From Burkholderiaceae bacterium (lineage in GTDB: Bacteria > Pseudomonadota > Gammaproteobacteria > Burkholderiales > Burkholderiaceae_C), in assembly GCA_041905785.1 (NCBI GenBank), contig JAYRKJ010000005.1:188319-252318 (forward strand): a stretch of DNA of 64,000 nt, in the 5' to 3' direction. A program made the translations under genes and the position numbers. Shown piece by piece: positions 19,025 through 37,153 of this stretch. The notes under the pieces are model-generated. The model had not been told where the DNA came from. It made no database searches and was given only the letters and a program-made list of their open reading frames with translations. Numbering within the stretch: the first letter of the stretch is position 1; every line of letters starts with the position of its first letter.

Positions 19025-20110
19025 ATGACCGTCGAAGTCGCCCGTTCCGCGCCCGGCTTTGTGGCCGAGCTGCTGACGCCAGGACAACTCAAGCGCCTGA
19101 TCCCCTGCAGTGCGGCCTCTGCCGCCACAGTGCAGCAGGCGCGCAAGAACATTCGGAGCATTCTGCAGGGGGGCAGTAACCGGCTGCTCGTCCTGATCGG
19201 CCCTTGCTCGATCCATGACTGCATGGCTGCCCGCCACTATGCGCGGCGCCTGCTGCGCATGCGAGAGCAGTGGGGTCAGGAGCTCGAAATCGTGATGCGT
19301 GCCTACCTGGAAAAACCCAGGACCACGCTGGGCTGGACGGGGCTGCTCAACGACCCCTTTCTAGACGGCAGCGGCCTGATTTCCCATGGGCTGGAGATCG
19401 GCCGCAGCCTGCTGGAGGAGCTCAACGCCATGGGCGTGCCGGTGGCCCACGAGATCGTGGCACCGGCCTCCTTGAGCTACCTCGATGACCTGCTGTCCTG
19501 GGTGGCCATCGGCGCTCGTACATCGGCGTCGCCGGTGCATCGTCAGCTTGCTTCGGGGCTGGACATCCCTGTCGGATTCAAGAATGGCGTGGAAGGGCAG
19601 GTGCAGGTGGCGGTGGAAGGCATCTTGTCGGCGCGGCATCCCCACAGCTATCTCGCGGTTCGACCGCAGGGGTCGCTCGGGATCTACAACAGCAGCGGCA
19701 ACGTCGACGCCCACCTGGTGATGCGCGGCGGCAAGCATCCCAATTTCGACGCCCAGAGCCTGGCCGAGGCAGCGTCCCTGCTGCGTGCGGCCGGCCTTGC
19801 CGACACCCTGGTGGTCGATGCCAGCCACGGAAACAGCCAGAAGGACCATCGCCGCCAGGGATTCGTGTGCGCTGACCTAGCAGGGCAGATCAGCGGCGGC
19901 AACCGTTCCATTGCCGGCGTAATGATTGAGAGCAACCTGCAGGCCGGCCGGCAGGACATCAAGCCTGGCAAAGTGCCGGATCCCGAGCTGAGCGTCACGG
20001 ATGCCTGCATAGGCTGGGATGAAAGCGCCGAGATCCTGGGCATGCTCGCGCAAGCGGTGAAGGCACGACGTCAGCGCAACCGGGCGCCTGCTTCCGAGGT
20101 CACTTTCTGA
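19025..20110 (+). CDS. DAHP synthase, class I-alpha (second, divergent copy)
   Basis: GPCSIHD, YLEKPRTTLGWTG, AIGART, GFKNG, DASHGNS, GVMIES, SVTDACIGW; AAGGAG RBS. Confidence 0.9.
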   Translation: MTVEVARSAPGFVAELLTPGQLKRLIPCSAASAATVQQARKNIRSILQGGSNRLLVLIGPCSIHDCMAARHYARRLLRMREQWGQELEIVMRAYLEKPRTTLGWTGLLNDPFLDGSGLISHGLEIGRSLLEELNAMGVPVAHEIVAPASLSYLDDLLSWVAIGARTSASPVHRQLASGLDIPVGFKNGVEGQVQVAVEGILSARHPHSYLAVRPQGSLGIYNSSGNVDAHLVMRGGKHPNFDAQSLAEAASLLRAAGLADTLVVDASHGNSQKDHRRQGFVCADLAGQISGGNRSIAGVMIESNLQAGRQDIKPGKVPDPELSVTDACIGWDESAEILGMLAQAVKARRQRNRAPASEVTF

Positions 20111-20154
20111 GGCCACTGTCTGAGGCCACTGTCTGAGGCCACTGTCTGAGGCCA
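20106..20154 (+). repeat. 13-bp tandem repeat, 3.8 copies
   Basis: TCTGAGGCCACTG x3 plus TCTGAGGCCA; first copy contains the DAHP synthase stop codon. Confidence 0.95.
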
Positions 20155-20302
20155 ATTCTCGAGGAACGCCAGGCCAGCCGCGCGTGGCAGCCCCCCCCTG
20201 ACGGCACCCACCCGGCCGGACGGGCCGCACCGCCTTCTCTTCATTCGAACGCCCCCCCGACGCGATCACCCTCGGGAAGCGCCCATTTCAAGGACTTGCA
20301 CC

Positions 20303-22300
20303 ATGAACGCCCCTCTGGACACCCCGCTGCTGCGGGAATCGGCATCGGAAGCCGACGCCGACCGCGCGTTGGAGCGCCCATCGCTTCCGGCACAGACGCA
20401 TGCGCCCAATCCCTCGGTGCAGCTCGCGCTCGGCCTCGGCAGCTTGCGCCAGGCCGCCGCGAGCCTGCATGCACAAGGCGGATTCGCGACGCGCGCCCGC
20501 CAGTTGCTGCAGCTTTGCGAGCATCTGCAACTGCATCGCGAATCGCTGATGCATGCCGGCTGGCTGGTGGGCTACGCGCCCTGGGACCAGCACCTGGACT
20601 TCGACGCCGGCCTGCTCGCGGTGCGCAGCATGGCGCAGCAGGTGGCCAACGAATGGCCCGATTCCATGCTGGTGCCGAAGTCCGAGCCGCATGCGCTGGA
20701 CAAAGAGGGCCGGTGCTGGACGGCCGAGGTGCTGGGCCGCGCCGCGGGCGTGGACGTGTTGATCCTGGGCCTGCACCGGCCCTGCGCACACCTGCTGCTG
20801 GGTTTCGCGAGCGCCTGGCTCGCCGGCCGATCCTGCCTGGTGCTCAGTCCGGAAGAGCATCCCCTGCTGGACTCCCTGCTGCTGGCGCTGCGCAGAGGTC
20901 TGCCGCACGGCGGCGCAGCGCTGCGCTGGATGGTGGGCGTCGACACGGCCCATGCCTTGGCGCAGCTGGAGTCGGCCGATCACGTGCAGGTCTGGAGCAC
21001 CCCGGTCGCAGGCGAGCTGCGCTGGGAAGGCATGCAGAGCTGTGCAGCCGATCGCACATTGCATCTGGCCGCCCCCGGCCTGGCGGTGCTGGATGATGCC
21101 GTCGCGGCGGGCAGTCCGATGTTCGAGAGAGTCGTCGACCTCGTGGCTTTGGGCGCCATGGCCGTCCACGGCCTGCATGAACATGCGGTGCGCACCGTCT
21201 GGCTGCCGCGCGAGCTGTCGACGGCCTTTGAAGCCGCCCTGCAGCAGCGTTGGCAGGCCTGGCACGGCAGCCGTCCCTCGCAGCACTGGCAAGGCAGCGC
21301 CGCGGCCGTGCAGCGGCTCGCCATGCAGTCGTGGATCCAGGACAGGCTGCACCAGGGTGCCACCCTGAGCGGTGCGACCGCGCAGGGGCCTGCCGTCCTC
21401 CGGCTGGCATCGCCCCATGACGCCGACGAGCGGGGCTTGGCGGCCCCGCCCCTGGGGCCGGTGCTCGCGCTCTGGGCCTATGACGACGTGGCGGCGTTGA
21501 GGCAAGCCCTGGAGGACAGCCACAGCGGCCGTCGTGCCGGCCTGGCCGTGCTGGCCTGCGGCGCTGAAGCGTGCAGGCGGCAGTGGGGCGCAGCATTGGC
21601 CCGCCGGCATCGCGCGCTGCACATCGTCGCAAACCCGCCCACGGTGCCGGCGGACCCCGACGATGCCTTGCGCCATGCCTGGGAATTGCTGGCCTCCCTG
21701 GACAAGGTCAGCGCCGAAGCGTCCCTCAAGGCATTGCTTCCTTCGTGCGCCGTGCTGGCCGCGCCGGCCGAACTCGGCGAATGCCTCCAGCAGTACCTGC
21801 CCGGCAGCCCGGTGCGCGAACTGGACCTCCACCCCTTTCGCTGCCACTTCGAAGACTTGCGCGTCGGCGACTCGCTGCTCACGCATCGCCGCACGGTCAC
21901 CGAGGCCGATATCGCGGCCTTCGGCGGGGTGTCGGGGGACTACTTCTACATGCACTTTGACGCGGAGGCGGCTGCCGCGTCTCCGTTCGGGCGCCGCATC
22001 GCCCACGGCTATTTCGTGCTGTCTGCAGCGGCCGGCCTGTTTGTCTGGCCCGGCGAAGGGCCGGTGCTGGCGAACTATGGCCTGGACAATCTGCGCTTCA
22101 TCCAGCCTGTCGGGATCGGCGACACCATCCAGGCTCGCCTGACCTGCAAGCGCAAACTGGACAAGGCACGCGCTGGCGGCAAGCGCGGCCAGGGGGTGGT
22201 GGTTTGGGACGTGCTCGTCTGCAATCAGCGTGGCGAAGCCGTGCTGCGCTACGACATCCTGACGCTGGTGGCCCGGCGAGGGCCGGAGGGGCAGGCATGA
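20303..22300 (+). CDS. PaaZ-like oxepin-CoA hydrolase with degenerate aldehyde dehydrogenase domain and intact MaoC hydratase domain
   Basis: C-terminus matches PaaZ closely ([53 protein letters not shown]); GQKCTAIRR-equivalent reads GLHEHAVRT. Confidence 0.85.
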
Positions 22301-22326
22301 GCAGCAGGCCGGCTCGCGCCTGGCGT

Positions 22327-23157
22327 TCACCGGCTGGGGGCCCGCTTGGCGAAGTAGTGAGCGGGTGAGTCGCCAAAGCAGCGGCGGAACATCGCGATGA
22401 AGTTGCTGGGCGTCGCGTAGCCCAGCGCATCGGCCACATTGGCCACGCTGTCGCCGCGGGCCAGCCGCTCCAGGGCATGGGTGAGCCGCGCCTGCTGACG
22501 CCACTGCGCAAAGCTGACCTGAGTCTCGGCCATGAACAGCCGGCCCAGAGTGCTCGGCGACAGACCCGCCCATTGGGCCCAATCGTCCATGGTGCGCTTG
22601 TCCTCGGGCTGTTCCAGGATGGCGTTGGCGATGCGCAGCAGCCGGCGGTCCTCGGGCATGGGCAGGTGCAGGGGCTCATGCGGTGCGTGGCGCATCTCGT
22701 CCAGCAGTACGGCCAGCATGCGCTCCTGTTCTTCGTTGAGACGCTCTTGCAGGGTCCAGGACACCGCCCGCCGAACCAGCGCCCGCATCAACTCGCTGAT
22801 GCCGATCACGCAAGGCGTGTCCGGCAGCGCCTGGCAGACCGAGGGAGCGATCACCACACTCCAGCCGCTCATGGCGCCGCTGATGCTGACCTTGTGAGCA
22901 ACGCCGGGCGGGATCCAACCGGCGCGATGGGGCGGCAGCAGCCAGGAGCCATGGGGGGTGCGCACATGCACGAGACCGTTTTCCACGCAGAACACCTGCC
23001 CGCGCAGATGGCTGTGCCAGTCGATTTCACGCGTGCCGAGACGGTACTCCGCCTTTGCATCGTCCTCGCCCCATATGGCGATCAGCGGCGGCCCGTCGGC
23101 ACGCTCGCTGAGATCGGGGAGGGCGTCGAGCCCCTGGGGAAATGCGGCATTGGCCAT
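22327..23157 (-). CDS. AraC-family regulator with cupin sensor (NimR-like)
   Basis: DWHSHLRGQ cupin, WLLPPHRAGWIPPG, C-terminal HTH LGYATPSNFIAMFRR; divergent from efflux operon. Confidence 0.92.
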   Translation of the reverse strand: MANAAFPQGLDALPDLSERADGPPLIAIWGEDDAKAEYRLGTREIDWHSHLRGQVFCVENGLVHVRTPHGSWLLPPHRAGWIPPGVAHKVSISGAMSGWSVVIAPSVCQALPDTPCVIGISELMRALVRRAVSWTLQERLNEEQERMLAVLLDEMRHAPHEPLHLPMPEDRRLLRIANAILEQPEDKRTMDDWAQWAGLSPSTLGRLFMAETQVSFAQWRQQARLTHALERLARGDSVANVADALGYATPSNFIAMFRRCFGDSPAHYFAKRAPSR

Positions 23158-23247
23158 GACTGAAATTCAGTATTTTTAGATCGAACAACGCTATCACGCT
23201 TTTCCGGCTTCGACCAAGAATTCCTGCCAGGGAAAGGCAACATCACC

Positions 23248-24729
23248 ATGAAGCGCCATACACGCAGACCAGAAGCAGTACCTCAGCAGGACCATCGCGC
23301 CGCGGCTTGGCGGCGCAGTCGGACGGCCGCAGGCGCATGCCTGCTGGTCTTCGCTGCCCAGCTGAGCGGCTGCGCCAGCATGGGCCCGGAAACGCCGCGC
23401 GTGGCCTTGCTGGACGCCCAGCAGCTGAAGCTCTCGGACGCCCCTGCGGCGGCGCCCAGCCCCTGGCCCCGCCTGGACTGGTGGCAGGCGCTGGGCGACC
23501 CGCAGCTCAATGCCCTGATCGATGATGCCCTGTCGTCTGCTCCCGACCCCATCGCGGCCGACGCGCGTCTGCGCCAGGCACGCGCCGCCGCAGGCATCGA
23601 CGCAGCCGCGCTGCAGCCGCAGCTGACGGCCAGCGTCGGCTGGCAGGGGGTTCGGCAGTCCTCGCAAGCCGTCCCGCCCAGCGAAGGCGGGGGGCAGTTC
23701 AAGCGGAAGTGGGAGGGCAGCCTGGGTCTGGACTGGACGCCGGACCTGTGGGGCGGTCGCCGCGCCGCCTGGACGGCCGCGCTCGGCGCCGTGCGCGCCG
23801 CGGAGGTGTCGGCACAGGACGCCCGCATCCAGCTGACGGTGGCGGTCGCCCAGGCCTATATGCAGCTGGCCTATGCCCATGTGCAGGGTGACATCGCCCG
23901 CGCCGAGCAGGAGCGCGTGGCCGAAGTCCAGCGGCTGACCCAGCAGCGCGTCAGCAGCGGCCTGGGCACGCAGGCACAGTTGCGCCAGACGGACAGCGAC
24001 ATGGCCAGCGCCGCCCAGCAGCGCCTGATGGCCGAGCGCCTGGTGTCCATGGCCCAGACCACGCTGTCGGTGCTGCTGGGCAAGGGTCCGGACCGAGGTG
24101 CCGCCGTGGGACGGCCGGCCTGGCCATCCGGCCCCGTTCTGGCCGCTCCCGGGTGGCTGCCGCTGGAGTTGCTCAGCCGCAGGGCCGACGTCGTGGCCGC
24201 GCGCTGGCGGGTGGAGTCCACCATGCAGCACATCACGTCGGCCAAGACCGCCTTCTTGCCCAATCTGAACCTGGCGGCCCTGGTCGGCGTGGCCGCGACG
24301 CAATGGAGCGACCTGCTTCGCCACGGCTCGGGCGTCTACTCGCTCAGCCCGGCGCTGAGTCTGCCCATCTTCGATGCCGGCAGACGCAGCGCCGAGCTGG
24401 CCGTGCAGGAAGCGCGGTACGACGAGGCGGTCGCTCAATACAACCAGACCTTGGTCAGGGCGGTGAACGAGGTGGCCGACCAGATCCAGGCGCAGCGCTC
24501 GCTCGCCGAGCAGCTGGAACAGCAGCAGCGTGCCAGGGACGCCGCACATGACGCCTGGCAGATGGCTGAGCAGCGCTACAAGGCCGGCGTCGGAAGCTAC
24601 CTGGATGCCCTCTCGGTCCGCCAGCAGCTGCTGCAGGCGGAGCAGCGCCTGGCGGCACTGCAGGCGCAGCGCATCCAGGACGGCCTGCTGCTGGTCAGGG
24701 CATTGGGCGGCGGATTCCGTGCGGAATAA
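23248..24729 (+). CDS. efflux outer-membrane lipoprotein (NodT/OprM family)
   Basis: LSGC lipobox, WWQALGDPQLNALI, ELLSRRADV, LVRALGGG. Confidence 0.92.
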   Translation: MKRHTRRPEAVPQQDHRAAAWRRSRTAAGACLLVFAAQLSGCASMGPETPRVALLDAQQLKLSDAPAAAPSPWPRLDWWQALGDPQLNALIDDALSSAPDPIAADARLRQARAAAGIDAAALQPQLTASVGWQGVRQSSQAVPPSEGGGQFKRKWEGSLGLDWTPDLWGGRRAAWTAALGAVRAAEVSAQDARIQLTVAVAQAYMQLAYAHVQGDIARAEQERVAEVQRLTQQRVSSGLGTQAQLRQTDSDMASAAQQRLMAERLVSMAQTTLSVLLGKGPDRGAAVGRPAWPSGPVLAAPGWLPLELLSRRADVVAARWRVESTMQHITSAKTAFLPNLNLAALVGVAATQWSDLLRHGSGVYSLSPALSLPIFDAGRRSAELAVQEARYDEAVAQYNQTLVRAVNEVADQIQAQRSLAEQLEQQQRARDAAHDAWQMAEQRYKAGVGSYLDALSVRQQLLQAEQRLAALQAQRIQDGLLLVRALGGGFRAE

Positions 24730-24792
24730 GGGACTCAGTAGTGCGCCTGAGGCTTGCAAGCCCGGGCATCGAAGACAAAAGGGGAAGCAATC

Positions 24793-26064
24793 ATGAGTGC
24801 AGAGAAAAGCGTGCAGACACCCGGTGCGGCGGCCACGCCCACCGATCCGGCGGCAGGCGCCACGAACCGTCGGCGCAACTTGCTGCTCAAGGCCTTGCTC
24901 GTCGGGGCTGGCCTAGGCGGGGCCCTCTGGGCCTTGTGGTACCAGCAGATTGGCCGTTGGCACGAGGAAACCGACAACGCCTATGTGCAGGGGAACCTGG
25001 TCCAGATCACGCCTCAGACGGCGGGGACGGTGGTGTCCATCGCGGCGGATGTCGGCGAGCCCGTGGGGCTGGGGCAGACGCTGATCTCCCTGGATCGCAC
25101 CGACAGCGAAGTGGCGCTGGCCTCTGCCATGGCCGATCTCTCGACGGTCATGCGCAAGGTCAAGGGTCTCTACACGCAGGAGCGCGGACTGCGCAGCACC
25201 ATCCAGGGAGCCGAAGCGGATGTGCAATCCCGCCGCGTCACCCTGGACAAAGCGCGCGCCGACTACCAGCGCCGCAAGGAACTGGCACGCTCGGGCGCGA
25301 TCTCGGATGAAGAGCTGGCCCATGCAAGAGACACGCTGTCCGCCGCGCAGAGCGCCTTGAACGCGTCGCAGAGCGCGGTGGCAAGCCTGGAGCAGCAGTA
25401 CCAAGGGAGCAAGGCCTTGGTCGACGGCACCGTGGTGGTCTCTCATCCCGAAGTCCAGAAGGCCGCCGCCACGCTGCGCTCCGCCTATCTCGACCAGGTG
25501 CGGACAGCACTGATCACGCCGGTCGCGGGGCATGTGGCCCAGCGCTCCGTGCAGCTGGGTCAACGCGTGGCCCCGGGCAGCAGCCTGATGTCCGTGCTGC
25601 CGCTGGACCAGGTCTGGGTGGAGGCGAATTTCACCGAAACGCAGCTGGCTCACATCCGGATCGGCCAGCCGGTGGAGCTGCGTGCTGACGCCTACGGCGA
25701 CGCTGTGAGCTACTCCGGCCGCGTGGTCAGCCTGGGGCTGGGAACCGGCAGCGCGTTTTCACCGCTGCCAGTCCAGAACGCCACCGGCAACTGGATCAAG
25801 ATCGTCCAGCGCCTGCCGGTACGGATCGAGCTGACCGATCGCAAGCAGCTGGTCCAGCATCCGCTTCGCCTGGGCTTGTCCATGCACGTCAAGGTCGATG
25901 TGCATGACGAAAGCGGCCCCATGCTGGTCGAGCAGCCACGGGCCAAGCCCAAGCTCAGCACGGACGTGTACAGCAAACAGGTCGACGCTGTGGACAGCCT
26001 GATCGATCGCATCGTCCGCGGCGCGCCGATCGGCACGCCCGCGGTCCGCGGAGCCCAGCGATGA
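24793..26064 (+). CDS. emrA: EmrA-family membrane fusion protein
   Basis: ETDNAYVQG, GTGSAFSPLP.QNATGNWIKIVQRLPVRI. Confidence 0.92.
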   Translation: MSAEKSVQTPGAAATPTDPAAGATNRRRNLLLKALLVGAGLGGALWALWYQQIGRWHEETDNAYVQGNLVQITPQTAGTVVSIAADVGEPVGLGQTLISLDRTDSEVALASAMADLSTVMRKVKGLYTQERGLRSTIQGAEADVQSRRVTLDKARADYQRRKELARSGAISDEELAHARDTLSAAQSALNASQSAVASLEQQYQGSKALVDGTVVVSHPEVQKAAATLRSAYLDQVRTALITPVAGHVAQRSVQLGQRVAPGSSLMSVLPLDQVWVEANFTETQLAHIRIGQPVELRADAYGDAVSYSGRVVSLGLGTGSAFSPLPVQNATGNWIKIVQRLPVRIELTDRKQLVQHPLRLGLSMHVKVDVHDESGPMLVEQPRAKPKLSTDVYSKQVDAVDSLIDRIVRGAPIGTPAVRGAQR

Positions 26065-27659
26065 GCAGCGCATCCGCGACCGCCACCCTGGGGCCGGGCG
26101 AGCCCCGCGGCGGGCCACCCGCGCCGCCAGCGCCAGCGCCGGCGCCGGGCGCTGCGGAATTCCTGCCGCAAAGCGTGCCGCTGACCACCGTGGGACTGGC
26201 CCTGGCCGTCTTCATGCAGGTGCTGGACGGCACCATCGCCAACGTGTCGCTGCCCACCATCGCGGGCAACCTGGGCGTCAGCACCAACCAGAGCGCCTGG
26301 GTGATCACCACCTTCTCGGTATGCAACGCCATCGCCCTGCCATTGACCGGATTCCTGGTCCGTCGCGTGGGGCAGGTGAGGCTTTTCATCTGGTCGACGC
26401 TGCTGTTCACGCTGGCCTCGCTGCTGTGCGGGCTGGCGCAGAGCCTGGGCGCCCTGGTGCTGTTCCGCGCACTGCAAGGCGCCGTGGCGGGTCCGATGAT
26501 CCCGACCACGCAAGCTTTGATGCTGTCCATCTATCCGCCACACCGGCGAGGATTCGCCCTGTCCATGATCGCGATGGTGACGGTGGTGGCGCCGATCGCT
26601 GGACCCTTGCTCGGCGGATGGATCACCGACAGCTACTCGTGGCAGTGGACCTTCCTCATCAACGTACCGATTGGGCTGTTCGCCGCTGCCGCGATTTCCA
26701 ATCAGATGCGAAGCAAGCCGGAGAAGACCGAGGCCGTCAAGGTCGACCACATCGGCCTGGCCACGCTGGTCCTGGGCGTTGGCGCGCTGCAGGTGGTCCT
26801 GGACAAAGGCAATGACGAGGACTGGTTCCAGTCGCCCTTCATCGTGGTCATGTCGCTGGTGGCCGCCATCAGCCTGGCGGTCTTCCTGATCTGGGAGCTG
26901 CACGAGCGCAACCCCATCGTCAACCTCCGGCTCTTTGCCAATCGCAACTTTGCGGCGGGCACGGTGACGCTCGTGCTGGCCTATTCCGCCTTCTTCGCGG
27001 TCAACGTCATCGTGCCCCAGTGGCTGCAGCGCACCATGGGCTACACGGCCATCTGGGCGGGGCTCGCGGCAGCGCCCATGGGCATCCTGCCGGTGCTGTT
27101 GACGCCCTTCATGGGCAAGTACGCGCCGCGCTTCAACATGCGCTGGATGGTCTGCAGCGCCTTCGCGATCCTGGGCGCGGCGTCCTTCATCCGGTCTGGC
27201 TTCTTTCTCGGCGTGGACTTCCAGCATGTGGCGGCGGTCCAGTTGCTGCAGGGCCTGGGGCTGGCCCTCTTCATCATGCCGATCAATGCCATCCTGCTGT
27301 CCGACCTGAAGCCACAGGAGATCGCCGCAGCGTCCGGGCTCTCGACCTTCAGCCGCACCCTGGGTGCCAGCTTTGCCGTCTCGATCACCGCGCTGGTCTG
27401 GGACCGTCGAGCGGTGCTGCACCACGCCCATCTGGCCGAAGGGCTGCCACCCGGCACGCTTGGGCAGCCGGCCCTGCCGCTGGCGCCGGGCGACCAGGCC
27501 TTTGCATTCCGGCTCGACCACTACCTGGACCAGCTCGCCTACCAGATGTCGTTCAACGACGTGGCCTACGCCCTGGGCTGGGTCTTCATGCTGGCCATCG
27601 CCGTGGTGTGGCTGGCCAAGCCGCCCTTCACCCCCAAGGCGCCGCCAGGCAAGCGCTGA
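26061..27659 (+). CDS. emrB: EmrB/QacA (DHA2) MFS efflux pump
   Basis: MQVLDGTIANVSLP, GPLLGGWITDSYSWQWTFLINVPIG, LDKGNDEDWF; 14-TM pattern. Confidence 0.92.
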   Translation: MSSASATATLGPGEPRGGPPAPPAPAPAPGAAEFLPQSVPLTTVGLALAVFMQVLDGTIANVSLPTIAGNLGVSTNQSAWVITTFSVCNAIALPLTGFLVRRVGQVRLFIWSTLLFTLASLLCGLAQSLGALVLFRALQGAVAGPMIPTTQALMLSIYPPHRRGFALSMIAMVTVVAPIAGPLLGGWITDSYSWQWTFLINVPIGLFAAAAISNQMRSKPEKTEAVKVDHIGLATLVLGVGALQVVLDKGNDEDWFQSPFIVVMSLVAAISLAVFLIWELHERNPIVNLRLFANRNFAAGTVTLVLAYSAFFAVNVIVPQWLQRTMGYTAIWAGLAAAPMGILPVLLTPFMGKYAPRFNMRWMVCSAFAILGAASFIRSGFFLGVDFQHVAAVQLLQGLGLALFIMPINAILLSDLKPQEIAAASGLSTFSRTLGASFAVSITALVWDRRAVLHHAHLAEGLPPGTLGQPALPLAPGDQAFAFRLDHYLDQLAYQMSFNDVAYALGWVFMLAIAVVWLAKPPFTPKAPPGKR

Positions 27660-28102: not shown

Positions 28103-28180
28103 CCCATGTCGGGCTGCGCGCGGCGCTTCATCGGCGCCGCGACGAACTGATCATCACCTTTGAACCAGAAGGAACTCGAC

Positions 28181-29744: not shown

Positions 29745-30967
29745 GCAAGAACGTCGAGCTGAAACCGCAAGAGGGGTCGCACCCCTGGCAGCCCGACCAG
29801 GGGGTCGGCACGCGGCTGGTCCATGCCGGTCGCAATCCGGCGGCCTACCATGGCTTCGTCAACACCCCCGTCTTTCGCGCCTCGACAGTGCTGAGCCCCA
29901 CGGTCCGCGAGCTGCTGGGGCGTACGCAGCCCTACATCTACGGGCGCCGGGGCACCCCAACCTCGCAGGCCCTGGAGCGCGCCGTCTGCGAGCTCGAGGG
30001 CGGCGTTGGCGCCGTGCTGTGCCCCTCGGGGCTTTCGGCCTGCACGCTGGCGCTTCAGTCCTGTCTCAGGCCCGGCGACCATGTGCTGGTCACCGATGCC
30101 GTCTACGGTCCTGTCCGCCATGCCTGCGAGGGTCTGCTCAAGCGCATGGCCATCGACGTGAGCTACTTTGCGCCAATGATGGGCGCTGAGCTGGCCTCGC
30201 TCGTTCGACCGAACACCCGGGCCGTTTACCTGGAGTCGCCGGGTTCGCACAGCATGGAGGTGCAGGACATTCCGGCGATCGTCTCGGTCGCCAGGGCGCA
30301 TGAGCTGACGGTGATCGCCGATTGCAGCTGGGCCACGCCCTTGTTCCTCCCGGCGCATGAGCTCGGCGTCGACCTGTCCATCCAGGCGGGCACCAAGTAT
30401 CTGTTGGGCCATTCCGACGGGATGCTGGGCACGGTGTCGGCGTCGTCCCGCGCCTGGCCCGCGCTGAAGGCACTGCATGGCGACCTGGGCTTGTGCGTGG
30501 GTCCGGACGACGTGTTCCTCGCCTTGCGTGGTCTGCGTTCCCTGCAGGTGCGCCTGCGCCAGCACGAGCAGGGTGGCCTGCAGGTGGCGCGCTGGCTCAA
30601 GCAGCAGAAGGAGGTGGCACGTGTGCTGCACCCGGCGCTGGAGGACTGCCCGGGACATGCGTTCTGGAAACGCGACTTCAGAGGTTCTTCCGGCCTTTTC
30701 ACCGTGGTGCTGAAGCCGGCACCGTTCGCAGCGGTCGAAGCCTTTCTGGATGGTCTTCGCCTGTTCGGCCTCGGCTATTCCTGGGGTGGCTTCGAGAGCC
30801 TGGCCTTGCCGCTCGATGCCTCGAGCGGGCGGCTGACCGAGCTTTGCGAGCCGGGCAGTCAGTGCGTTCGGCTGCACATCGGGCTTGAAGACCCACAGGA
30901 TCTCATCGACGACCTGCGGGCCGGCCTGGATCGCCTGCAGAACGTATGCATGGAATCGTTGAGCTAG
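29741..30967 (+). CDS. metC: cystathionine beta-lyase-like PLP C-S lyase (MetC type)
   Basis: VNTPVFRAST, YGRRGTPT, YLESPGS, QAGTKYLLGHSD (PLP Lys), GYSWGGFESL; ATGA overlap. Confidence 0.88.
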   Translation: MSKNVELKPQEGSHPWQPDQGVGTRLVHAGRNPAAYHGFVNTPVFRASTVLSPTVRELLGRTQPYIYGRRGTPTSQALERAVCELEGGVGAVLCPSGLSACTLALQSCLRPGDHVLVTDAVYGPVRHACEGLLKRMAIDVSYFAPMMGAELASLVRPNTRAVYLESPGSHSMEVQDIPAIVSVARAHELTVIADCSWATPLFLPAHELGVDLSIQAGTKYLLGHSDGMLGTVSASSRAWPALKALHGDLGLCVGPDDVFLALRGLRSLQVRLRQHEQGGLQVARWLKQQKEVARVLHPALEDCPGHAFWKRDFRGSSGLFTVVLKPAPFAAVEAFLDGLRLFGLGYSWGGFESLALPLDASSGRLTELCEPGSQCVRLHIGLEDPQDLIDDLRAGLDRLQNVCMESLS

Positions 30968-30977
30968 AAGGGAGAGC

Positions 30978-31661
30978 ATGGACATGTTGACCGTATGGGG
31001 GCGGCGCAGCTCATTCAATGTTCAGAAGGTGATGTGGCTGATCGGTGAGCTCGGACTCCCGCATCGCCACATCCCGGCCGGCGGCGACTTCGGCGGCTGC
31101 GATACGCCGGCGTTCGAGCGGCTCAATCCGCACCAGCGTGTGCCCGTGATCGAGCATGACGGCGAGGTGGTGTGGGAGTCCCACGCCATCCTTCGCTACC
31201 TTGCCGCCAAAGCCGGCCGCGAACCCTTCTGGTCCGCGGACGCTCACCGACGCTCGCTGAGCGAGCGCTGGATGGATTGGAGCCAGAGCTCGCTGGAGCC
31301 CGATCTCATGCTGGGGCTCTTCTGGGCCCTCGTGCGAACGCCGGCAGAGCAGCGAGACGAGGCGCTGATTCGGACCAAGCTGGCCCTGAGCGTGCGGCAC
31401 TTCCAGCGCCTGGACGGCATCCTGGCCCGACAGCCCTACCTCAGCGGCGATGCCCTCGGGCTGGGCGACATCCCTGCCGGTGCCACGCTGTTTCGCTACT
31501 ACTCGATGGACATCGACAGGCCACGACTGCCGCACGTGAACGACTGGTACCGACGGCTTTGCGCCCGCCCGGCCTACCAGGAGCACGTGATGGTGTCCTA
31601 TGACGAACTGCGGGGCCGCCCAGACCGCAGCGCGCTCGTCCTGGACTGGGAGCTGCCATGA
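30978..31661 (+). CDS. glutathione S-transferase (GstB/YliJ-like)
   Basis: WGRRSSFNVQKV, LNP..RVPV, WESHAILRYL, WYRRLCARP. Confidence 0.93.
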   Translation: MDMLTVWGRRSSFNVQKVMWLIGELGLPHRHIPAGGDFGGCDTPAFERLNPHQRVPVIEHDGEVVWESHAILRYLAAKAGREPFWSADAHRRSLSERWMDWSQSSLEPDLMLGLFWALVRTPAEQRDEALIRTKLALSVRHFQRLDGILARQPYLSGDALGLGDIPAGATLFRYYSMDIDRPRLPHVNDWYRRLCARPAYQEHVMVSYDELRGRPDRSALVLDWELP

Positions 31662-32350
31662 AGCCGCCCGTGCTGCTGATCCTGCACCGGCCGCAGTCAT
31701 CGCCAGGTCGCGTCGGACGCCTGCTGAAGCAAAAGGGCTACGAGCTGGACATCAGGCGGCCGCCCCTGGGCGACACGCTCCCACCGACGCTGCGGGCGCA
31801 CAGTGGGGTGGTGGTGTTTGGCGGCCCCATGAGCGCCAATGATCCGGATCCCTGGCTGCGAACCGAGACGGACTGGCTTCGCGTCCCCTTGAGGGAGCAG
31901 GCGCCGCTTCTGGGCATCTGCCTGGGTGCCCAGCTGCTGGCACGCCATCTCGGTGCCGCCGTGCGCCCAAGGGCCGACGGCCGCGTCGAGATCGGCTACT
32001 GGCCGATCCGGCCCACGTCCAAGGGACGGCAGCTGGGGCACTGGCCCGAGCGCGTCTATCACTGGCATCGCGAGGGCTTTGATCTGGTGGACGGGATGCA
32101 GCGGCTCGCCGTCGGCGAGGTCTTCGAAAACCAGGCCTTCCATTACGGCAGGAAGGCCTATGGCCTGCAATTCCACCCCGAGGTCAGCTACCAGACCATG
32201 AACCGCTGGGCGCTGTCCGCACCCGACAAGCTGCACGCTCCCGGCGCTCAGCTGCTGGCGACGCAGCGTCATCAGGGCGGGCGGCATGACCGCGCCGGGA
32301 AAGCCTGGCTCAGCGCCTTTCTGGATGGCTGGCTCGCACCGGCCGCCTGA
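31658..32350 (+). CDS. class I glutamine amidotransferase-like protein (possible gamma-glutamyl peptidase)
   Basis: FGGPMSAND, LGICLGAQ (nucleophile Cys), GLQFHPE (His-x-Glu); ATGA overlap with GST. Confidence 0.88.
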   Translation: MKPPVLLILHRPQSSPGRVGRLLKQKGYELDIRRPPLGDTLPPTLRAHSGVVVFGGPMSANDPDPWLRTETDWLRVPLREQAPLLGICLGAQLLARHLGAAVRPRADGRVEIGYWPIRPTSKGRQLGHWPERVYHWHREGFDLVDGMQRLAVGEVFENQAFHYGRKAYGLQFHPEVSYQTMNRWALSAPDKLHAPGAQLLATQRHQGGRHDRAGKAWLSAFLDGWLAPAA

Positions 32351-32604
32351 GTGCCAGGTGGGTGGCACGCCCCACCCTGTCACCTGATTGCGGGATGCTT
32401 ATGCGCCGGGGCGTGCCATGTCGCCAGCCTTTGGAATTGTAAAATGCACAGAAACTCGCATTTCACGGCCCATGCCACATGGGGGCGCCCAGGGTCGCGC
32501 GGCCATGGAATGCCCAAGCAGTTCAGGATAGTTGCTCAACGCAGAGCAGGGTTCCGCTGCAGCCGCATGCAGCAGTCCAGAGGCTTGTTTCAAGCAAAAA
32601 CGCG

Positions 32605-33225
32605 ATGTCCAACCAGCAAGCAGGTCCGCGCAAGATTCCGAGCCAGGCTCGGTCGCGCCGCATGGTCGATTCGATTCTAGAAGCAGCGGCCGGCGTGCTG
32701 GCCGAGCGCGGCTATGCCGGGACGAGCACCAACCTGGTCGCCGAGCGGGCCGGCGTGAGCGTCGGGTCCGTCTATCAATACTTTCCCAACAAGGACTCGC
32801 TGGTCGCGGCCCTGCATGAGCGCCATGCGGGCCAGATGTACCAGGTCATCGATGCCGTGTTGGGGACCGGCCATCGAGGCAATCTGCGCAGCCAGATTGA
32901 AGCCATGGTGCGGGCACTGATGGCCGCGCACATGGTCGAGCCCCGCTTGCATCGTGTCCTGGAGCAGGAACTTCCCTTCTTCGAGATCCCCAAGGCGAAC
33001 GACAGCCCCTCGGACAAGGGCATCTTCTCGCGCGTGCAGCTGCTGCTGGAGCAGCACCGCGCCGAGATCGTGCCGCAAGACGTTCCGCTGGCCGCCTGGG
33101 TGATCCAGCGCATCATCGAATCCATGGTCCATGCCGCCGTCATCGACCCGCCGCCTGGATTCTCCATGCCGGAGATTGAGCGCGCGATCGTCGATGCCGT
33201 GCTGGGTTTTCTGGGCGCGCGCTGA
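32605..33225 (+). CDS. TetR/AcrR-family regulator
   Basis: PSQARSRRMVDSILEAA...VAERAGVSVGSVYQYFPNK HTH. Confidence 0.93.
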   Translation: MSNQQAGPRKIPSQARSRRMVDSILEAAAGVLAERGYAGTSTNLVAERAGVSVGSVYQYFPNKDSLVAALHERHAGQMYQVIDAVLGTGHRGNLRSQIEAMVRALMAAHMVEPRLHRVLEQELPFFEIPKANDSPSDKGIFSRVQLLLEQHRAEIVPQDVPLAAWVIQRIIESMVHAAVIDPPPGFSMPEIERAIVDAVLGFLGAR

Positions 33226-33349
33226 GCCATAGCCGGCGCCGGACCTGACCTTTGTCCGCCTGAAGGGCGCCGGCGCCGCAGGCGCCGGGCATGTGCATTG
33301 CCAGCAGCGAAGACCCACCCGAGGGGCAACTGACTTTGCGGAGAATGCC

Positions 33350-33679
33350 ATGGCTCATGACACCCACCCATCCTGTATCCAGGCCTGTGAAGCCTGCGCC
33401 AACGCCTGCGATCACTGCGCCGTTGCCTGCCTGCATGAGCAGGACGTCAAGATGATGGCCCGCTGCGTCGCACTGAACATGGACTGTGCGGCGATCTGCC
33501 GCCTGGTCGTCGGATGCATGGCCCGCGGCAGCGAGCTCAGTGTGCTGCTCTGCCGCGCCTGCGCGCAGGTCTGCGAAGCCTGCGGCGAGGAATGCGCCAG
33601 ACACCTCCACGATCACTGCGAGCAATGCGCCGAAGCTTGCCGGCGATGCGCCGAGCAATGCCGGCAGATGGCGGCCTGA
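33350..33679 (+). CDS. four-helix-bundle copper storage protein (Csp3/DUF326-like)
   Basis: 20 Cys in 109 aa in CxxC/CxxxC repeats; no signal peptide. Confidence 0.88.
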   Translation: MAHDTHPSCIQACEACANACDHCAVACLHEQDVKMMARCVALNMDCAAICRLVVGCMARGSELSVLLCRACAQVCEACGEECARHLHDHCEQCAEACRRCAEQCRQMAA

Positions 33680-33789
33680 ACCTGCTGCGCGCGCAAGGAC
33701 TGGCCTGCGGCCAACCCCGCCCGGCTGCGTGCGGCAGGCAGCACCCACCACTGCGAAAGGGCAAGCATGCATGGTGGCATGCGCCGGCT

Positions 33790-34509
33790 TCAGAAGAGCA
33801 TCCCCAGCACGGCCGCCTTCAGCACCGCCTGCGTCTTGTTTGTCGAGTTCAGCTTCATCGTGGCCTTGGCCACATGAAAGTTGACGGTGCGCTTGGTCAA
33901 GCCCAGGATCATGGCGATCTCTGATGACGTCTTGCCGTCAGCCGTCCACTGAAGGATGGTGCGCTCCCGCTCGCTCAACCGGGAATCAGGCCGGTGGAAC
34001 AGTTGCGGGAGGCGGCGCTTCAGCACGCCGTCATGCAGACGCTGGCAAAAGCCGGCCAGCTCAGCCGCCTTCTCATCAAACTCCCCCAGCGACACGCCCC
34101 CATGTGTCCGGGCAAAGGTCATGGCGCCAATGATGCCGTGCTCGGTCCGCGCGGGCAGCGTGCAGCCGTAGTGCATGCCGCAGCTCAGCGCGGTCCGCCA
34201 GAAGAGGATGGGCGTCTGCTGGCCGGCCGCCGCCCACAGCCATGGGCTGCTGCTTCCCTGGGCGTGCCGAATCCACGGGTCTTGCACCGCGAAGTCCTGG
34301 CCCGCATAGGCTTCAAGCCATTCACGAGGCGCGTTGCCGGTCTGAATGACCGCCGGACGGGTCATTGGCGGATAGACATGCGCCTGGTACAGGCAATGAT
34401 CAAAGCCCAGCTTCTTCGCGAAAGAAGACATCAGCCGCTCGCATTCTTGCTCCTCAAGTTCGTGGCCGCATCGCGGAACAACCCCGCCATCAATAACGCA
34501 ATCCTGCAT
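33790..34509 (-). CDS. LuxR-family autoinducer-binding regulator (apparent solo)
   Basis: W-x3-Y, DP, W, G ligand-pocket pattern (EWLEAY..QDFAVQDPW..SPWLW..GMHYG); HTH WTADGKTSSEIA...TVNFH; alternative start 34560. Confidence 0.9.
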   Translation of the reverse strand: MQDCVIDGGVVPRCGHELEEQECERLMSSFAKKLGFDHCLYQAHVYPPMTRPAVIQTGNAPREWLEAYAGQDFAVQDPWIRHAQGSSSPWLWAAAGQQTPILFWRTALSCGMHYGCTLPARTEHGIIGAMTFARTHGGVSLGEFDEKAAELAGFCQRLHDGVLKRRLPQLFHRPDSRLSERERTILQWTADGKTSSEIAMILGLTKRTVNFHVAKATMKLNSTNKTQAVLKAAVLGMLF

Positions 34510-34919
34510 GCTTGACTCCCTGGTTCGTCGAGTGCCCACCATCAATAAATATTCAATCACTCGCGTTTCTCTGCATTCTCTTGGGTCGTTCTGACATGGA
34601 CGTTACCAACCGTGTCAGTCATGCCGGCGTGATCCTGCCAACGCCCAGAATCACCAGCAATCAAGCCACATTTGGCAAGTTTCATTTGCTTACATGCAAT
34701 GGGCGAACCCTCGCAAAATGCACAAACATGGAGCAAATGCCCACGCTATTGGCATGCACATTGACGTCAATATGCGAGTAACAAGTCGCGTGTTGTCGTG
34801 ATGCATAGGCCGGTATGGCCATGAGGACGCGACGACAGCGCCCAATTGCCAGCACGGCCGAGACGCGCCGGGATACGAGACCGGGCGAAGGGACGGCCGA
34901 CCTACGCCGAGTCCAGGCC

Positions 34920-35525
34920 TTAGGCGCGAACCGCGCTTCGATAGCGGCCCAGCACCCTCAGTTCGCAGGCCAGAGCAGCAGCGTCCTGCAGGGCCAGCCT
35001 GACGTCTTCGCGGTCGGGAGGGGCGGCGATGGTGAAATGGAAGCGATAGTGCCAGCCCGCGACGCGCGCCGGCCGCGAGCACCAATGCTCGACGGACAGG
35101 CGACGTCGCGCCAGCGGCGACAGCAGCTCCAGCATGCTGCCGGTGCGCTGCGCAAGGGACACCGCGATCATCAGGCGGTCGTCATCTTCACCCGGTGGAT
35201 GGCCCTTGCCTGCGATGACGCCATACCTGATGCAGGAGGTGCCACCCAGCGGGGTCGGCGGTGTTGGCGTGCCGGGCACCAGCACTTCGCCCACCATGCT
35301 GACTGCGCCCGAGTAGAGAAGATCGAGGCTGCGGTTGACGGGGCCATCCCTGCTGCATTCCAGCGGCATGACACCGTAGCGGCATGCTCCTTCCGCTACG
35401 GCGGCATGGATGGCATCCAGGCTTGCAAAGGGCAGACGCGGCGGCTCAGGTCCGAAGTACCTGGCCGCGGCGAGCTCGCCGGCGGATCCCTGCGGGCCCG
35501 GATAGGCGATGCCGGCATCCGCCAT
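34920..35525 (-). CDS. shortened prephenate dehydratase-like protein with ACT domain (TdaC-like)
   Basis: IAYPGPQGS, YGVMPLECS..GPV..SLDLL, then ACT (GSMLELLSPLA...SRP); only 201 aa. Confidence 0.72.
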   Translation of the reverse strand: MADAGIAYPGPQGSAGELAAARYFGPEPPRLPFASLDAIHAAVAEGACRYGVMPLECSRDGPVNRSLDLLYSGAVSMVGEVLVPGTPTPPTPLGGTSCIRYGVIAGKGHPPGEDDDRLMIAVSLAQRTGSMLELLSPLARRRLSVEHWCSRPARVAGWHYRFHFTIAAPPDREDVRLALQDAAALACELRVLGRYRSAVRA

Positions 35526-35553
35526 GGCTACAGCCCCGATTCCCCAAGCGGCA

Positions 35554-36717
35554 TCAGGCCGCCTGGGGCGCCGCCAGCGGGCGGGTCACGGCCTGCGCGG
35601 TCAGCGGCCGGATCATCTGGTTGAAGATGTTCTTGCGATGCATCTCCTCGGTGCCGCCCACGCTGGCGAAGCCCAGGGCGTCACGCATCAGGGTCGCGAT
35701 CGGTCCTTCATGGTAGCCGCGGCTTCCATACAGCCGGACCAGATCCAGCGCGCTCTTGATGAGGTCTTCCGATCCCACCAGCTTGGCCACCGAGCAGGCC
35801 AGCAAGGCGTCGGGCTGCTCGCCCAGCAGCCGACCGAGCGCGCCGAGCGCCGTCCAGCGGCTGCGCTCCATGCCGATGCGGATGTCCGTCAGGCGACGCT
35901 GCACATACTGGTGGTCGATGATGGGCTCGCGGAAGCTGTGCCGCGCCTGGGCATAACGCAAGGCGTCATCAAGAAAGGGCGCAGCCAGCGCGGCGGCCAC
36001 CAAGCCGTAATATGCGCGCCCCAGCGAAATGATGTCGATGAGCTGACGCAAGCCGCGCTTGGGATCGCCCAAGACCTGGGCGTGCGGCACGAAGACGTCG
36101 TGGAACTCCAGGCTGCCCGTGGGAAGATCCGCGTTGCCCAGCTTGTGATCACTCGGGCCGGTCACCAGGCCATCAGCGTCTCGGTCCACGAAGACCAGGC
36201 CCACCGCCTCCGGCGCGTCGGCATACCGGCAAACAACCAGCGAGAACGCTGCCATGGGGGCATGCGCAATGTTGTATTTGCTGCCGTTCAGCAGATAACC
36301 CTCGGCGCAGGGCGTCAGTGTGCTGCCCAGGCTGCGCACGTCTGTACCGGTACTGGGCTCGGCGATTCCCGTGGCGCACAGCTCCCCGCGCGCCAGCGCG
36401 GCCAGATACTTGTCCTTCTGTGCCACCGTGCCGTAGCGCTGCAGCCCGCGGACCATGCCCGCCTGCGCAATGGCCGACAGCAACAGGGCAGGGGAGCGGA
36501 TGGAGAGCGACAAGCCCTCCAACGCTGCCGTGAAGTCCCACCAAGCCGGCGTACTGCCCTCCCGCTGGCCGATGAGCTGCCAAAGGCCCTCCTGGCGCAG
36601 GCGGCCCCAGCGGCACGCGTCAAAACCCGGCTGCGCGCCCATGGCGGCGAGCTGCTCACCCAGCCCGCGAAAGCGGTGGTGCAAGGCCAGTTGGTGTTCA
36701 GACCACTGCATCATCAT
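35554..36717 (-). CDS. acyl-CoA dehydrogenase-fold flavoprotein (TdaE-like candidate)
   Basis: TGIAEPSTGTDV, LNGSKYNI, KLG, AKL, GSRGY, GGTEEM; AAGGAG RBS. Confidence 0.85.
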   Translation of the reverse strand: MMMQWSEHQLALHHRFRGLGEQLAAMGAQPGFDACRWGRLRQEGLWQLIGQREGSTPAWWDFTAALEGLSLSIRSPALLLSAIAQAGMVRGLQRYGTVAQKDKYLAALARGELCATGIAEPSTGTDVRSLGSTLTPCAEGYLLNGSKYNIAHAPMAAFSLVVCRYADAPEAVGLVFVDRDADGLVTGPSDHKLGNADLPTGSLEFHDVFVPHAQVLGDPKRGLRQLIDIISLGRAYYGLVAAALAAPFLDDALRYAQARHSFREPIIDHQYVQRRLTDIRIGMERSRWTALGALGRLLGEQPDALLACSVAKLVGSEDLIKSALDLVRLYGSRGYHEGPIATLMRDALGFASVGGTEEMHRKNIFNQMIRPLTAQAVTRPLAAPQAA

Positions 36718-36739
36718 GGCGCTGCTCCTTGCCTTCGGC

Positions 36740-37153
36740 TCAGACGCTGCCCTGGAAATCCAGGATCTTGGCCTTGAATTCTTCGGTGACCGGCGTGGTC
36801 TTGTTCGTGGCGTAGTCAAACATCACATGCTTCGAGTAGCCGCGTGCCACCACGGTGTCCTGCTCATCCTGGCGATGCATCACGTGCTCGATCTCGAAGC
36901 TCTTGGTTCCGAAGTTGCTGACCCGACTGCGAACCACCAGGCTGTCGCCGAACATGGCCGGCTGCACATACTCGCAGGCAGTTTTCACCATGATGTGAGG
37001 CAGCTTCTCATGCTTGGGGATGGACAGCACCTTGAACATGAACTCGAGGTAGGCATGCTGAAGATAGTCGTAGTAGACCGGGCTGCTGACATGACCCATT
37101 GAATCAGTGTCCCGATATTTCACCTGGATGGGCGTTTCAAAGTTCCTGCTCAT
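36740..37153 (-). CDS. hotdog-fold acyl-CoA thioesterase (4-HBA-CoA/YbgC type, TdaD-like)
   Basis: IQVKYRDTDSMGHV...YYDY, FGTKSF; AAGGAG RBS. Confidence 0.88.
   Translation of the reverse strand: MSRNFETPIQVKYRDTDSMGHVSSPVYYDYLQHAYLEFMFKVLSIPKHEKLPHIMVKTACEYVQPAMFGDSLVVRSRVSNFGTKSFEIEHVMHRQDEQDTVVARGYSKHVMFDYATNKTTPVTEEFKAKILDFQGSV

Follow-up and report, generated by a model that had tools for sequence, protein, structure and literature searches.

A probable tropolone-type biosynthetic cluster in a Roseateles/Mitsuaria-group bacterium resembles a putative Burkholderia cepacia complex cluster for ditropolonyl sulfide

TdaE acts as a dioxygenase, yielding a reactive epoxytropone carboxylate (Duan 2021, PMC8283759). 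Clusters built around its homologs include the Pseudomonas tpo cluster for 7-hydroxy- and 3,7-dihydroxytropolone (PMC11481866) and a Janthinobacterium cluster from which tropodithietic acid (TDA) is produced, as reported in a 2026 paper documenting TDA in a member of the Burkholderiales (PMC13163973). For the ditropolonyl-sulfide producer Burkholderia cenocepacia Bp8974, a Burkholderia cepacia complex (Bcc) member, a putative “tda gene cluster” has been listed (Table S3, PMC8283759). The list comprises a 337-aa hypothetical protein, TdaE, a CoA ester lyase (300 aa), a pyridoxal phosphate (PLP) synthase/pyridoxamine phosphate oxidase (PNPOx; 217 aa), a cystathionine beta-lyase (CBL; 412 aa, “PatB?”), a glutathione S-transferase (GST; “TdaB?”), a glutamine amidotransferase (GATase), an autoinducer-binding regulator, a 143-aa hypothetical protein, a DHA2 major facilitator superfamily (MFS) permease, an adaptor, an outer-membrane protein (OMP), a helix-turn-helix (HTH) regulator, a glutamate-cysteine ligase, a DAHP synthase, and TdaD (PMC8283759). 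Here, we examined a 64,000-nt stretch of DNA (hereafter the window) from a betaproteobacterium of the Roseateles/Mitsuaria group (Burkholderiales). Its 18-kb, 18-gene cluster, at positions 19025 to 37153, is probably an ortholog of the putative Bcc ditropolonyl-sulfide cluster and probably directs the biosynthesis of a tropolone-type natural product, a seven-membered-ring antibiotic or metal chelator, most likely one that contains sulfur.

The acyl-CoA dehydrogenase (ACAD)-fold protein of the cluster is a TdaE ortholog. Among 72,556 plasmids, its best matches were the TDA plasmids of Phaeobacter inhibens (50 to 51% identity), where the matched gene is tdaE inside the tdaA-E locus. Phaeobacter TdaE searched back against the genome scored 387 bits with the window gene and 98 bits with the next ACAD, making the two reciprocal best hits. 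A maximum-likelihood tree placed the window protein and its relatives within the TdaE family as a distinct clade (support 100/99), apart from the branches of alphaproteobacterial, Pseudomonas tpo, Bcc, and TDA-type betaproteobacterial proteins. Grouping with ordinary ACADs, named beforehand as evidence against a troponoid cluster, was not seen; these proteins sat on branches about 8 to 10 long. The classical ACAD catalytic Glu is replaced, the EGT motif reading GGT. No solved TdaE structure was found, the PDB matches being classical ACADs only. The thioesterase gene, spaced 22 nt from tdaE, had been called TdaD-like, and its product shares 61% identity with TdaD from Phaeobacter and from Janthinobacterium and 60% with TpoD of Pseudomonas, within a range of 55 to 70% across the TdaD/TpoD proteins of Phaeobacter, Janthinobacterium, Hydrogenophaga, Pseudomonas, Pseudoduganella, and Paraburkholderia.

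Together with these two orthologs, a PaaZ homolog with an inactivated aldehyde dehydrogenase (ALDH) domain (PaaZ2) supports the proposal, made in a preliminary description of this DNA, of a troponoid cluster branching from phenylacetate catabolism. Aligned to Escherichia coli PaaZ, PaaZ2 carries E256->A and C295->E as well as N158->H and K181->L, so the loss of ALDH function predicted for it holds, while the hydratase residues D561 and H566 are retained. PaaZ2 orthologs adjoin the cluster in five relatives. The upper phenylacetate pathway, which was expected to lie elsewhere in the genome and whose absence had likewise been named as counterevidence, was found as a complete set on contig C31 (paaZ, paaABCDE, paaK, paaI, paaG, and paaY), with proteins 45 to 69% identical to those of E. 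coli and a canonical PaaZ (57.5% to E. coli) that has all four residues intact; paaJ and paaH are on contig C18. Next to PaaZ2 in the window, and in three relatives (81 to 89% identity), is a DAHP synthase. The genome encodes four DAHP synthases, the cluster copy being additional and the housekeeping function residing elsewhere.

The locus had also been regarded as an unfamiliar gene set and perhaps an undescribed variant. That reading fails because the locus carries the genes of the Bcc-type sulfur-tropolone cluster, supplemented by modules already seen in tda and tpo clusters: the additional enzymes and transporters are those of the published Bp8974 set, with Bcc orthologs at 46 to 73% identity in the same order. 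Compared with the block in one Bcc genome (locus L021), identities were 73% for the HpcH-like lyase and the MFS permease, 66% for CBL and GST, 65% for the GATase, 61% for the adaptor, 57% for TdaE, 53% for PNPOx, 49% for the OMP, 46% for the small hypothetical protein, and 29% for LuxR. A contiguous HpcH-PNPOx-CBL-GST-GATase block is kept in the same order and on the same strand, a small hypothetical protein (132 to 143 aa) adjoins the DHA2 MFS/adaptor/OMP pump in both, and TdaD, DAHP synthase, and an AraC-type HTH regulator are shared as well. The Bcc AraC is outside the compared locus; the window AraC is instead 81% identical to the AraC that adjoins the efflux genes in the TdaE cluster of Paraburkholderia sp. 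D15.

Because the window has a G+C content of about 68%, genes were chosen by third-position GC and then compared with Pfam and NCBIfam. Every gene listed in the preliminary description of 19025 to 37153 was present, and one had been missed, a conserved 132-aa open reading frame (ORF) on the + strand in the apparent gap between the MFS and HpcH genes. The gene order TdaD-TdaE-PDT-like-LuxR-Csp-like-TetR-GATase-GST-CBL-PNPOx-HpcH-hypothetical-MFS-adaptor-OMP-AraC-PaaZ2-DAHP synthase, where PDT denotes prephenate dehydratase, is kept in five related genomes, so the 18 genes are not a chance grouping. The left border, 19025, was placed correctly, since the second DAHP synthase upstream belongs to a siderophore operon; the right border is the start of tdaD. 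The features are as follows.

19025 to 20110, + strand: DAHP synthase, class I AroF/G/H type (Pfam DAHP_synth_1, 1e-69; TIGR00034 above cut-off).
20303 to 22300, + strand: PaaZ2 (Pfam MaoC domain only; ALDH residues lost).
22327 to 23157, - strand: AraC-family regulator, divergent from the efflux operon (Pfam HTH_18).
23248 to 24729, + strand: outer-membrane efflux channel, NodT family (Pfam OEP; TIGR01845 above cut-off).
24754 to 26064, + strand: EmrA-like periplasmic adaptor (Pfam HlyD families; EmrA/EmrK subfamily match).
26061 to 27659, + strand: EmrB-like DHA2 MFS efflux permease (Pfam MFS_1; TIGR00711 above cut-off).
27704 to 28102, + strand: 132-aa protein, “hyp143” of the Burkholderia cluster (ORF; 46% to the Bcc 143-aa hypothetical protein).
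28160 to 29083, + strand: HpcH/CitE-like CoA-ester lyase, TpoB-like (Pfam HpcH_HpaI, 6e-29).
29091 to 29744, + strand: PNPOx/PhzG-like FMN oxidase (Pfam PNPOx_N and PNP_phzG_C; PDB matches PdxH and PhzG).
29741 to 30967, + strand: MetC-type PLP cystathionine beta-lyase, CBL (Pfam Cys_Met_Meta_PP, 4e-96; TIGR01324 above cut-off).
30978 to 31661, + strand: cytosolic GST, classical GST_N/GST_C (Pfam; best PDB match 6nv6, 1.6e-57).
31658 to 32350, + strand: stand-alone class I GATase-like protein (Pfam GATase; NF005072 above cut-off).
32479 to 33225, + strand: TetR regulator, TetR_C_15 (Pfam; real start probably further downstream).
33350 to 33679, + strand: Cys-rich Csp/DUF326-like protein (Pfam DUF326).
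33790 to 34560, - strand: orphan LuxR, autoinducer-binding plus GerE domains (Pfam; SdiA-like).
34920 to 35525, - strand: short PDT-like protein, PDT N-subdomain plus ACT (Pfam PDT, positions 1 to 79 only).
35554 to 36717, - strand: TdaE ortholog, ACAD-fold flavoprotein dioxygenase (reciprocal best hit, phylogeny).
36740 to 37153, - strand: TdaD/TpoD ortholog, hotdog thioesterase (Pfam 4HBT_2; ATG at 37153 with an AAAGGAG ribosome-binding site).
37250 to 37267, no strand: palindrome ACTGTGATTGGTGACAGT, lux-box-like CTG-N10-CAG (sequence; conservation in five relatives).

Three enzyme families bear on the question of sulfur. GST, a candidate gamma-glutamyl-cleaving enzyme (the GATase), and a PLP C-S lyase are tightly coupled in the cluster, which has no dipeptidase. 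The CBL is a dedicated paralog with an intact PLP-Lys motif (GTKYLLGHSD), the housekeeping MetC being on contig C1 (38%). The GATase is present as a single copy in the genome, has an intact Cys/His/Glu triad (GICLGAQ/HPE), and overlaps the GST stop codon, an arrangement conserved in every cluster of this type; it is 51% identical to the GATase of the Janthinobacterium TDA cluster, which shares PaaZ2 and a C-S lyase as well. In Janthinobacterium lividum (L022, 5392 to 7356), homologs of TdaR1 (42%) and TdaR2 (61%) are followed by this class I GATase, and in Phaeobacter (L001, 10256 to 12161) the same position is held by TdaR3, a gamma-glutamylcyclotransferase published as conferring TDA resistance. 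Given this apparent nonorthologous replacement of TdaR3, the GATase is a candidate gamma-glutamyl hydrolase that may act on the gamma-glutamyl bond in glutathione or in one of its conjugates. Genes for glutathione synthesis (GshB, Glu_cys_ligase, or GCS2) occur in or near the betaproteobacterial TdaE clusters of Bcc (L021), Janthinobacterium (L022), and Hydrogenophaga (L029) and of a further locus (L031). None is found in the window's cluster, the genome having a glutamate-cysteine ligase homolog on contig C36 and a GshB homolog on contig C31.

The dedicated paralogs, intact catalytic residues, GATase in the TdaR3 position, and traveling glutathione genes favor a sequence of GST conjugation, gamma-glutamyl removal, and PLP-dependent C-S cleavage, and it is plausible that the product contains sulfur. 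A role in resistance is compatible with these facts too. The product could then be a plain tropolone or hydroxytropolone, with the GST-GATase-CBL set, the Csp-like protein, and the pump serving self-protection rather than sulfur insertion, either through mercapturate-like disposal of the reactive epoxytropone or through glutathione turnover of the TdaR3 kind that counters a protonophore or chelator. Such a role would agree with the spontaneous decay of the TdaE product to tropolone, with TDA resistance through TdaR3 and the placement of the Janthinobacterium GATase beside TdaR1/TdaR2 homologs, and with the core of the sulfur-free Pseudomonas tpo cluster, which consists of HpcH, TetR, TdaD, TdaE, and a tripartite MFS pump. 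We nevertheless consider it quite unlikely, as GST, CBL, GATase, and PNPOx are missing from the sulfur-free tropolone cluster of Burkholderia plantarii and from the Pseudomonas tpo and Pseudoduganella loci; among Burkholderia, the cassette is reported in the cluster of the sulfur-bridged tropolone producer (PMC8283759), and a dedicated PLP C-S lyase translationally coupled to a GST fits thiol release better. The absence of all four genes from the B. plantarii cluster supports a link between them and sulfur.

Sulfur could also enter as S-thiocysteine. The CBL would then make cysteine persulfide from cystine, a reaction that cystathionine lyases are known to catalyze, and the GST would add it to the epoxytropone, leaving the GATase no direct part; TdaF would be unnecessary because glutathione reduces the mixed disulfide. 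Such a model has been published for PatB and TdaB, and it was on the same logic that Duan et al. tagged the Bcc CBL “PatB?” and the Bcc GST “TdaB?” (PMC8283759). The window GST, however, is of the classical conjugating type and not beta-etherase-like as TdaB is; as a TdaB ortholog it was rejected (21 to 25% identity, E 0.003 to 0.02, no GST_C_7). The conserved overlap of the GATase gene with the GST stop codon and the glutathione-synthesis genes traveling with related clusters likewise speak against this route, which we regard as unlikely. Tentatively, we propose that the GST, the GATase-like hydrolase, and the MetC-type lyase insert sulfur by way of a glutathione conjugate, and that the Roseateles-type cluster yields a product derived from thiotropolone, different from TDA and not necessarily ditropolonyl sulfide; this is possible rather than probable.

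TDA itself (thiotropocin) would require a GstB-like GST in place of TdaB, a MetC-type CBL in place of PatB, and a PNPOx in place of TdaF. TdaD, TdaE, and PaaZ2 are common to TDA clusters, the GATase has its Janthinobacterium counterpart, a Burkholderiales member is a documented producer, and PNPOx and TdaF are both FMN oxidases. Against this stands the rest of the genome. TdaA and TdaF, noted as absent from the cluster, have no ortholog anywhere in a whole-genome search: the sole match to Janthinobacterium TdaF (25%, E 7e-9) is outside the cluster on contig C9 and is taken to be a housekeeping flavoprotein, and the cluster has no LysR gene, the genome's matches to TdaA being generic LysR proteins (27 to 32%). 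TdaB gave no genome match at 1e-6, PatB matched only generic aminotransferases elsewhere in the genome (27 to 33%), the cluster lyase belonging to Cys_Met_Meta_PP rather than Aminotran_1_2, and no TdaR1 or TdaR2 ortholog was found in the genome. All betaproteobacterial TDA-type clusters examined keep TdaF, a GST_C_7 TdaB, and an Aminotran_1_2 PatB together. The sulfur cassette is orthologous to the Bcc type, and Bcc producers make ditropolonyl sulfide rather than TDA. TDA is therefore a very unlikely product.

One TDA-type cluster came to light in Hydrogenophaga sp. RWCD_12 (GCA_046604225.1; L029, 1778 to 12148), of a genus in the host family. Its genes encode ChaC, an MFS permease, TdaF, a methyltransferase, TdaD, a serine acetyltransferase, PatB, a 136-aa hypothetical protein, a GST_C_7 TdaB, TdaE, and GshB. 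No report of this cluster was found, and its methyltransferase suggests a methylated TDA derivative.

The remaining enzymes and small proteins are conserved to differing extents. The HpcH-like lyase, a single copy in the genome, is 73% identical to its Bcc homolog, 56% to that of Pseudomonas tpo, and 54% to that of Pseudoduganella; a 2024 mBio study describes the TpoB-like lyase as conserved without known function (PMC11481866). PNPOx is a dedicated paralog, the housekeeping copy (PdxH) being on contig C23 (38%). The 132-aa protein, also a single copy, is 70 to 79% identical in relatives and belongs to a very small family with no Pfam or PDB sequence match. Its AlphaFold2 model is alpha/beta (pLDDT 89.7), and a Foldseek search of the model against the PDB returned no significant fold, the best match being Sec14/STAS-like (E 0.07, TM about 0.5). 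The gene described as encoding a Cu-storage protein does encode a Cys-rich DUF326/Csp-like four-helix-bundle protein, but the more specific Csp1 assignment did not stand, TIGR04401 scoring 33.5 bits, below its cut-off. This protein has no twin-arginine translocation leader, is 51 to 73% identical in relatives (with a partial match in L006), is missing from the Bcc locus, and is specific to the window clade; one may speculate that it handles copper in the presence of a thiol or tropolone chelator.

The PDT-like protein had been labeled TdaC-like, which proved untenable: a profile of its family against full-length Phaeobacter TdaC (200 aa) gave a probability of 0.2% (E 0.36), and neither BLAST nor hhalign found similarity to the 142-aa annotated or the 200-aa full-length protein. 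The two proteins share a length of about 200 aa and a PDT-like stretch at the N terminus, TdaC's PDT signal being below threshold, so that, as far as their sequences tell, they resemble each other in size and family alone. In a profile comparison with the PDB, residues 1 to 84 aligned with PDT 4 to 83 and residues 108 to 194 with ACT 192 to 278 of 2qmx, about 105 residues from the middle of the catalytic domain being missing. The family is tiny and limited to the window clade, and the protein is possibly a regulatory or ligand-binding remnant rather than a functional dehydratase. The RefSeq tdaC of P. inhibens 2.10 plasmid pPGA2_239 is 142 aa, and its start appears to be annotated too far downstream, since the ORF (L001, 7942 to 8544) reaches 200 aa, as in DSM 17395.

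These assignments can be arranged into a pathway. The dedicated DAHP synthase may raise shikimate flux to phenylpyruvate and phenylacetate, and PaaK, PaaABCDE, and PaaG, encoded on the other contig, would supply oxepin-CoA. The PaaZ2 hydratase would open the ring; lacking the ALDH Glu and Cys, PaaZ2 would not oxidize the resulting semialdehyde, which, following chemistry from the literature, would cyclize by Knoevenagel condensation to 2-hydroxycyclohepta-1,4,6-triene-1-formyl-CoA. By orthology, TdaE, with the TdaD thioesterase where needed, would catalyze dehydrogenation, CoA removal, and epoxidation to the reactive epoxytropone-2-carboxylate (Duan 2021, 2024 mBio), a compound expected to decay to tropolone unless trapped. 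The translationally coupled cassette may then install a thiol, the GST adding glutathione, the GATase removing gamma-glutamate, and the CBL cleaving the C-S bond, and the thiotropolone formed may join with another tropolone unit. Unassigned steps of the pathway presumably involve the HpcH/TpoB-like lyase, the PNPOx/PhzG-like oxidase, and the 132-aa protein. Judging from family assignments, export would proceed through the EmrAB/NodT-type pump under AraC control, and the tdaD-tdaE-PDT operon would be controlled via the lux-box-like palindrome, probably by the orphan LuxR.

Several points weigh against assigning the cluster to a sulfur-containing tropolone made in this way. The literature searched reports no product for the host organism or any congener, and ditropolonyl sulfide has been tied to the Bcc cluster by bioinformatics only (PMC8283759). 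The TdaE of the window clade is not specifically sister to Bcc TdaE in the tree, which makes the cluster a mosaic whose product may be a different one. In the model published for tropone sulfur, S-thiocysteine is made by PatB and added by TdaB before TdaF acts, and no glutathione conjugates are involved. The GATase could serve resistance instead of biosynthesis, no Cys-Gly dipeptidase is encoded in the cluster, and three conserved genes are left without a step.

Candidate control elements are conserved with the genes. The AraC regulator is 91 to 93% identical in relatives, and the AraC-pump module as a whole is 51 to 81% identical to that of the Paraburkholderia TdaE cluster; the TetR regulator is 46% identical to the Pseudomonas tpo TetR, 57% to that of Pseudoduganella, and 84 to 93% in relatives. 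Each of the two luxI genes in the genome has its own luxR on other contigs (C13 and C25), which makes the cluster LuxR a third, orphan copy. About 97 nt upstream of tdaD is the perfect palindrome ACTGTGATTGGTGACAGT, the sole ACTGT-N8-ACAGT site in the window. A CTG-N10-CAG core is typical of lux boxes. All five relatives retain the palindrome, at -103 to -127, amid intergenic DNA that has otherwise diverged, and this candidate operator is probably bound by the orphan LuxR.

The cluster has a patchy distribution. In a scan of representative genomes, close TdaE relatives were confined to Roseateles flavus, Mitsuaria sp. WAJ17, Roseateles subflavus, and one Burkholderiaceae metagenome-assembled genome, which assigns the window to this group of Burkholderiales. 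A TdaE ortholog was present in six of eight species of the host genus and in 4 of 301 genomes of the host family (2 of 201 genera). Among 401 genomes sampled across the order, the window's own was the sole match (0/400 others), a count that is a rough lower bound as this survey scored few candidates per genome. In a parallel GST survey, genomes without TdaE gave only GstB-like proteins at 45 to 52%, an uninformative outcome. G+C content is 62 to 65% over positions 32000 to 38000 of the window, which cover the regulators, the tdaCDE-like part, and the start of an iron operon, and 68 to 72% elsewhere in the window. This drop and the patchy distribution would fit horizontal acquisition. No paper linking Roseateles, Mitsuaria, or Pelomonas with tropones was found in the literature searched, and the three genera are not mentioned in the accessible portions of the text and supplements of a 2024 survey of biosynthetic gene clusters.

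Metal-acquisition genes lie on both sides of the cluster. Directly upstream, positions 2812 to 18901 of the window hold a complete catecholate (2,3-dihydroxybenzoate-type) siderophore cluster encoding enterochelin esterase, a 2491-aa nonribosomal peptide synthetase, an EntS-like MFS permease, EntC, EntE, EntB (isochorismatase-ArCP), EntA, and its own DAHP synthase. The last (17768 to 18901) was rejected as a member of the tropolone cluster since it travels with the siderophore operon, which is next to the tropolone cluster in no relative but the closest. Past tdaD and divergent from it, positions 37407 to 42028 hold an iron-uptake operon encoding an Fe2+ transport (Iron_transport) protein, an OprB-like porin, an FTR1 permease, and a Fer4_5 protein; the closest relative (L023) has the same iron-uptake neighbors plus a cupredoxin gene. 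A chelator-type cluster is thus flanked by two metal-acquisition systems.

These data extend TdaE-type clusters to a genus without a reported troponoid and do not define a novel pathway type. The novelty lies in the host genus and in the makeup of the mosaic, which adds PaaZ2, the PDT-ACT protein, the Csp-like protein, and a conserved lux-box-like operator. The window clade combines a compact sulfur cassette, an ALDH-dead PaaZ2, and a footprinted operator in a nonpathogenic freshwater and soil genus, and offers a convenient system for distinguishing the glutathione from the S-thiocysteine route, for assigning roles to the TpoB-like lyase, PNPOx, and the 132-aa protein, and for studying quorum-sensing control of troponoids.

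Glutathione-based sulfur insertion is known from gliotoxin (GliG, GliK, GliJ, GliI) and from glucosinolate and camalexin biosynthesis (GST, GGP1, SUR1). The likeness of the window cluster to these systems is one of logic only: a GST conjugates glutathione to an electrophile, gamma-glutamate is removed (in plants, a class I GATase-like peptidase does this), and a PLP C-S lyase frees the thiol. The window cluster differs in having no Cys-Gly dipeptidase, and its substrate would be an epoxytropone carboxylate. If true, the route would be of a gliotoxin- or glucosinolate-like kind not yet shown for a bacterial troponoid, unlike the S-thiocysteine/TdaB/TdaF model.

With the TDA clusters of Phaeobacter, Janthinobacterium, and Hydrogenophaga, the window cluster shares TdaE (51 to 60%), TdaD (55 to 61%), an ALDH-dead PaaZ2 (38% to Janthinobacterium), a class I GATase, and dependence on the paa catabolon; unlike them, it has no TdaA, TdaF, PatB, or TdaR1/R2, and its GST is of another subfamily than the GST_C_7 TdaB. 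With the Pseudomonas tpo and Pseudoduganella clusters, it shares TpoE/TdaE (57 to 60%), TpoD/TdaD (60 to 70%), the TpoB-like HpcH lyase (54 to 56%), and a TetR_C_15 regulator (46 to 57%), along with tripartite MFS efflux in the case of tpo; those clusters lack GST, GATase, CBL, PNPOx, and PaaZ2 and have instead TpoF/TpoG or an HpaB-type hydroxylase and short-chain dehydrogenases/reductases. Relative to Bcc, whose host belongs to a different family, the window cluster adds the ALDH-dead PaaZ2, the PDT-N plus ACT protein, the TetR_C_15 regulator, and the Csp-like protein, lacks the glutamate-cysteine ligase and the 337-aa hypothetical protein, and has its efflux module inverted relative to the enzymes. 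The window cluster is a mosaic, its modules recurring in other tropolone clusters.

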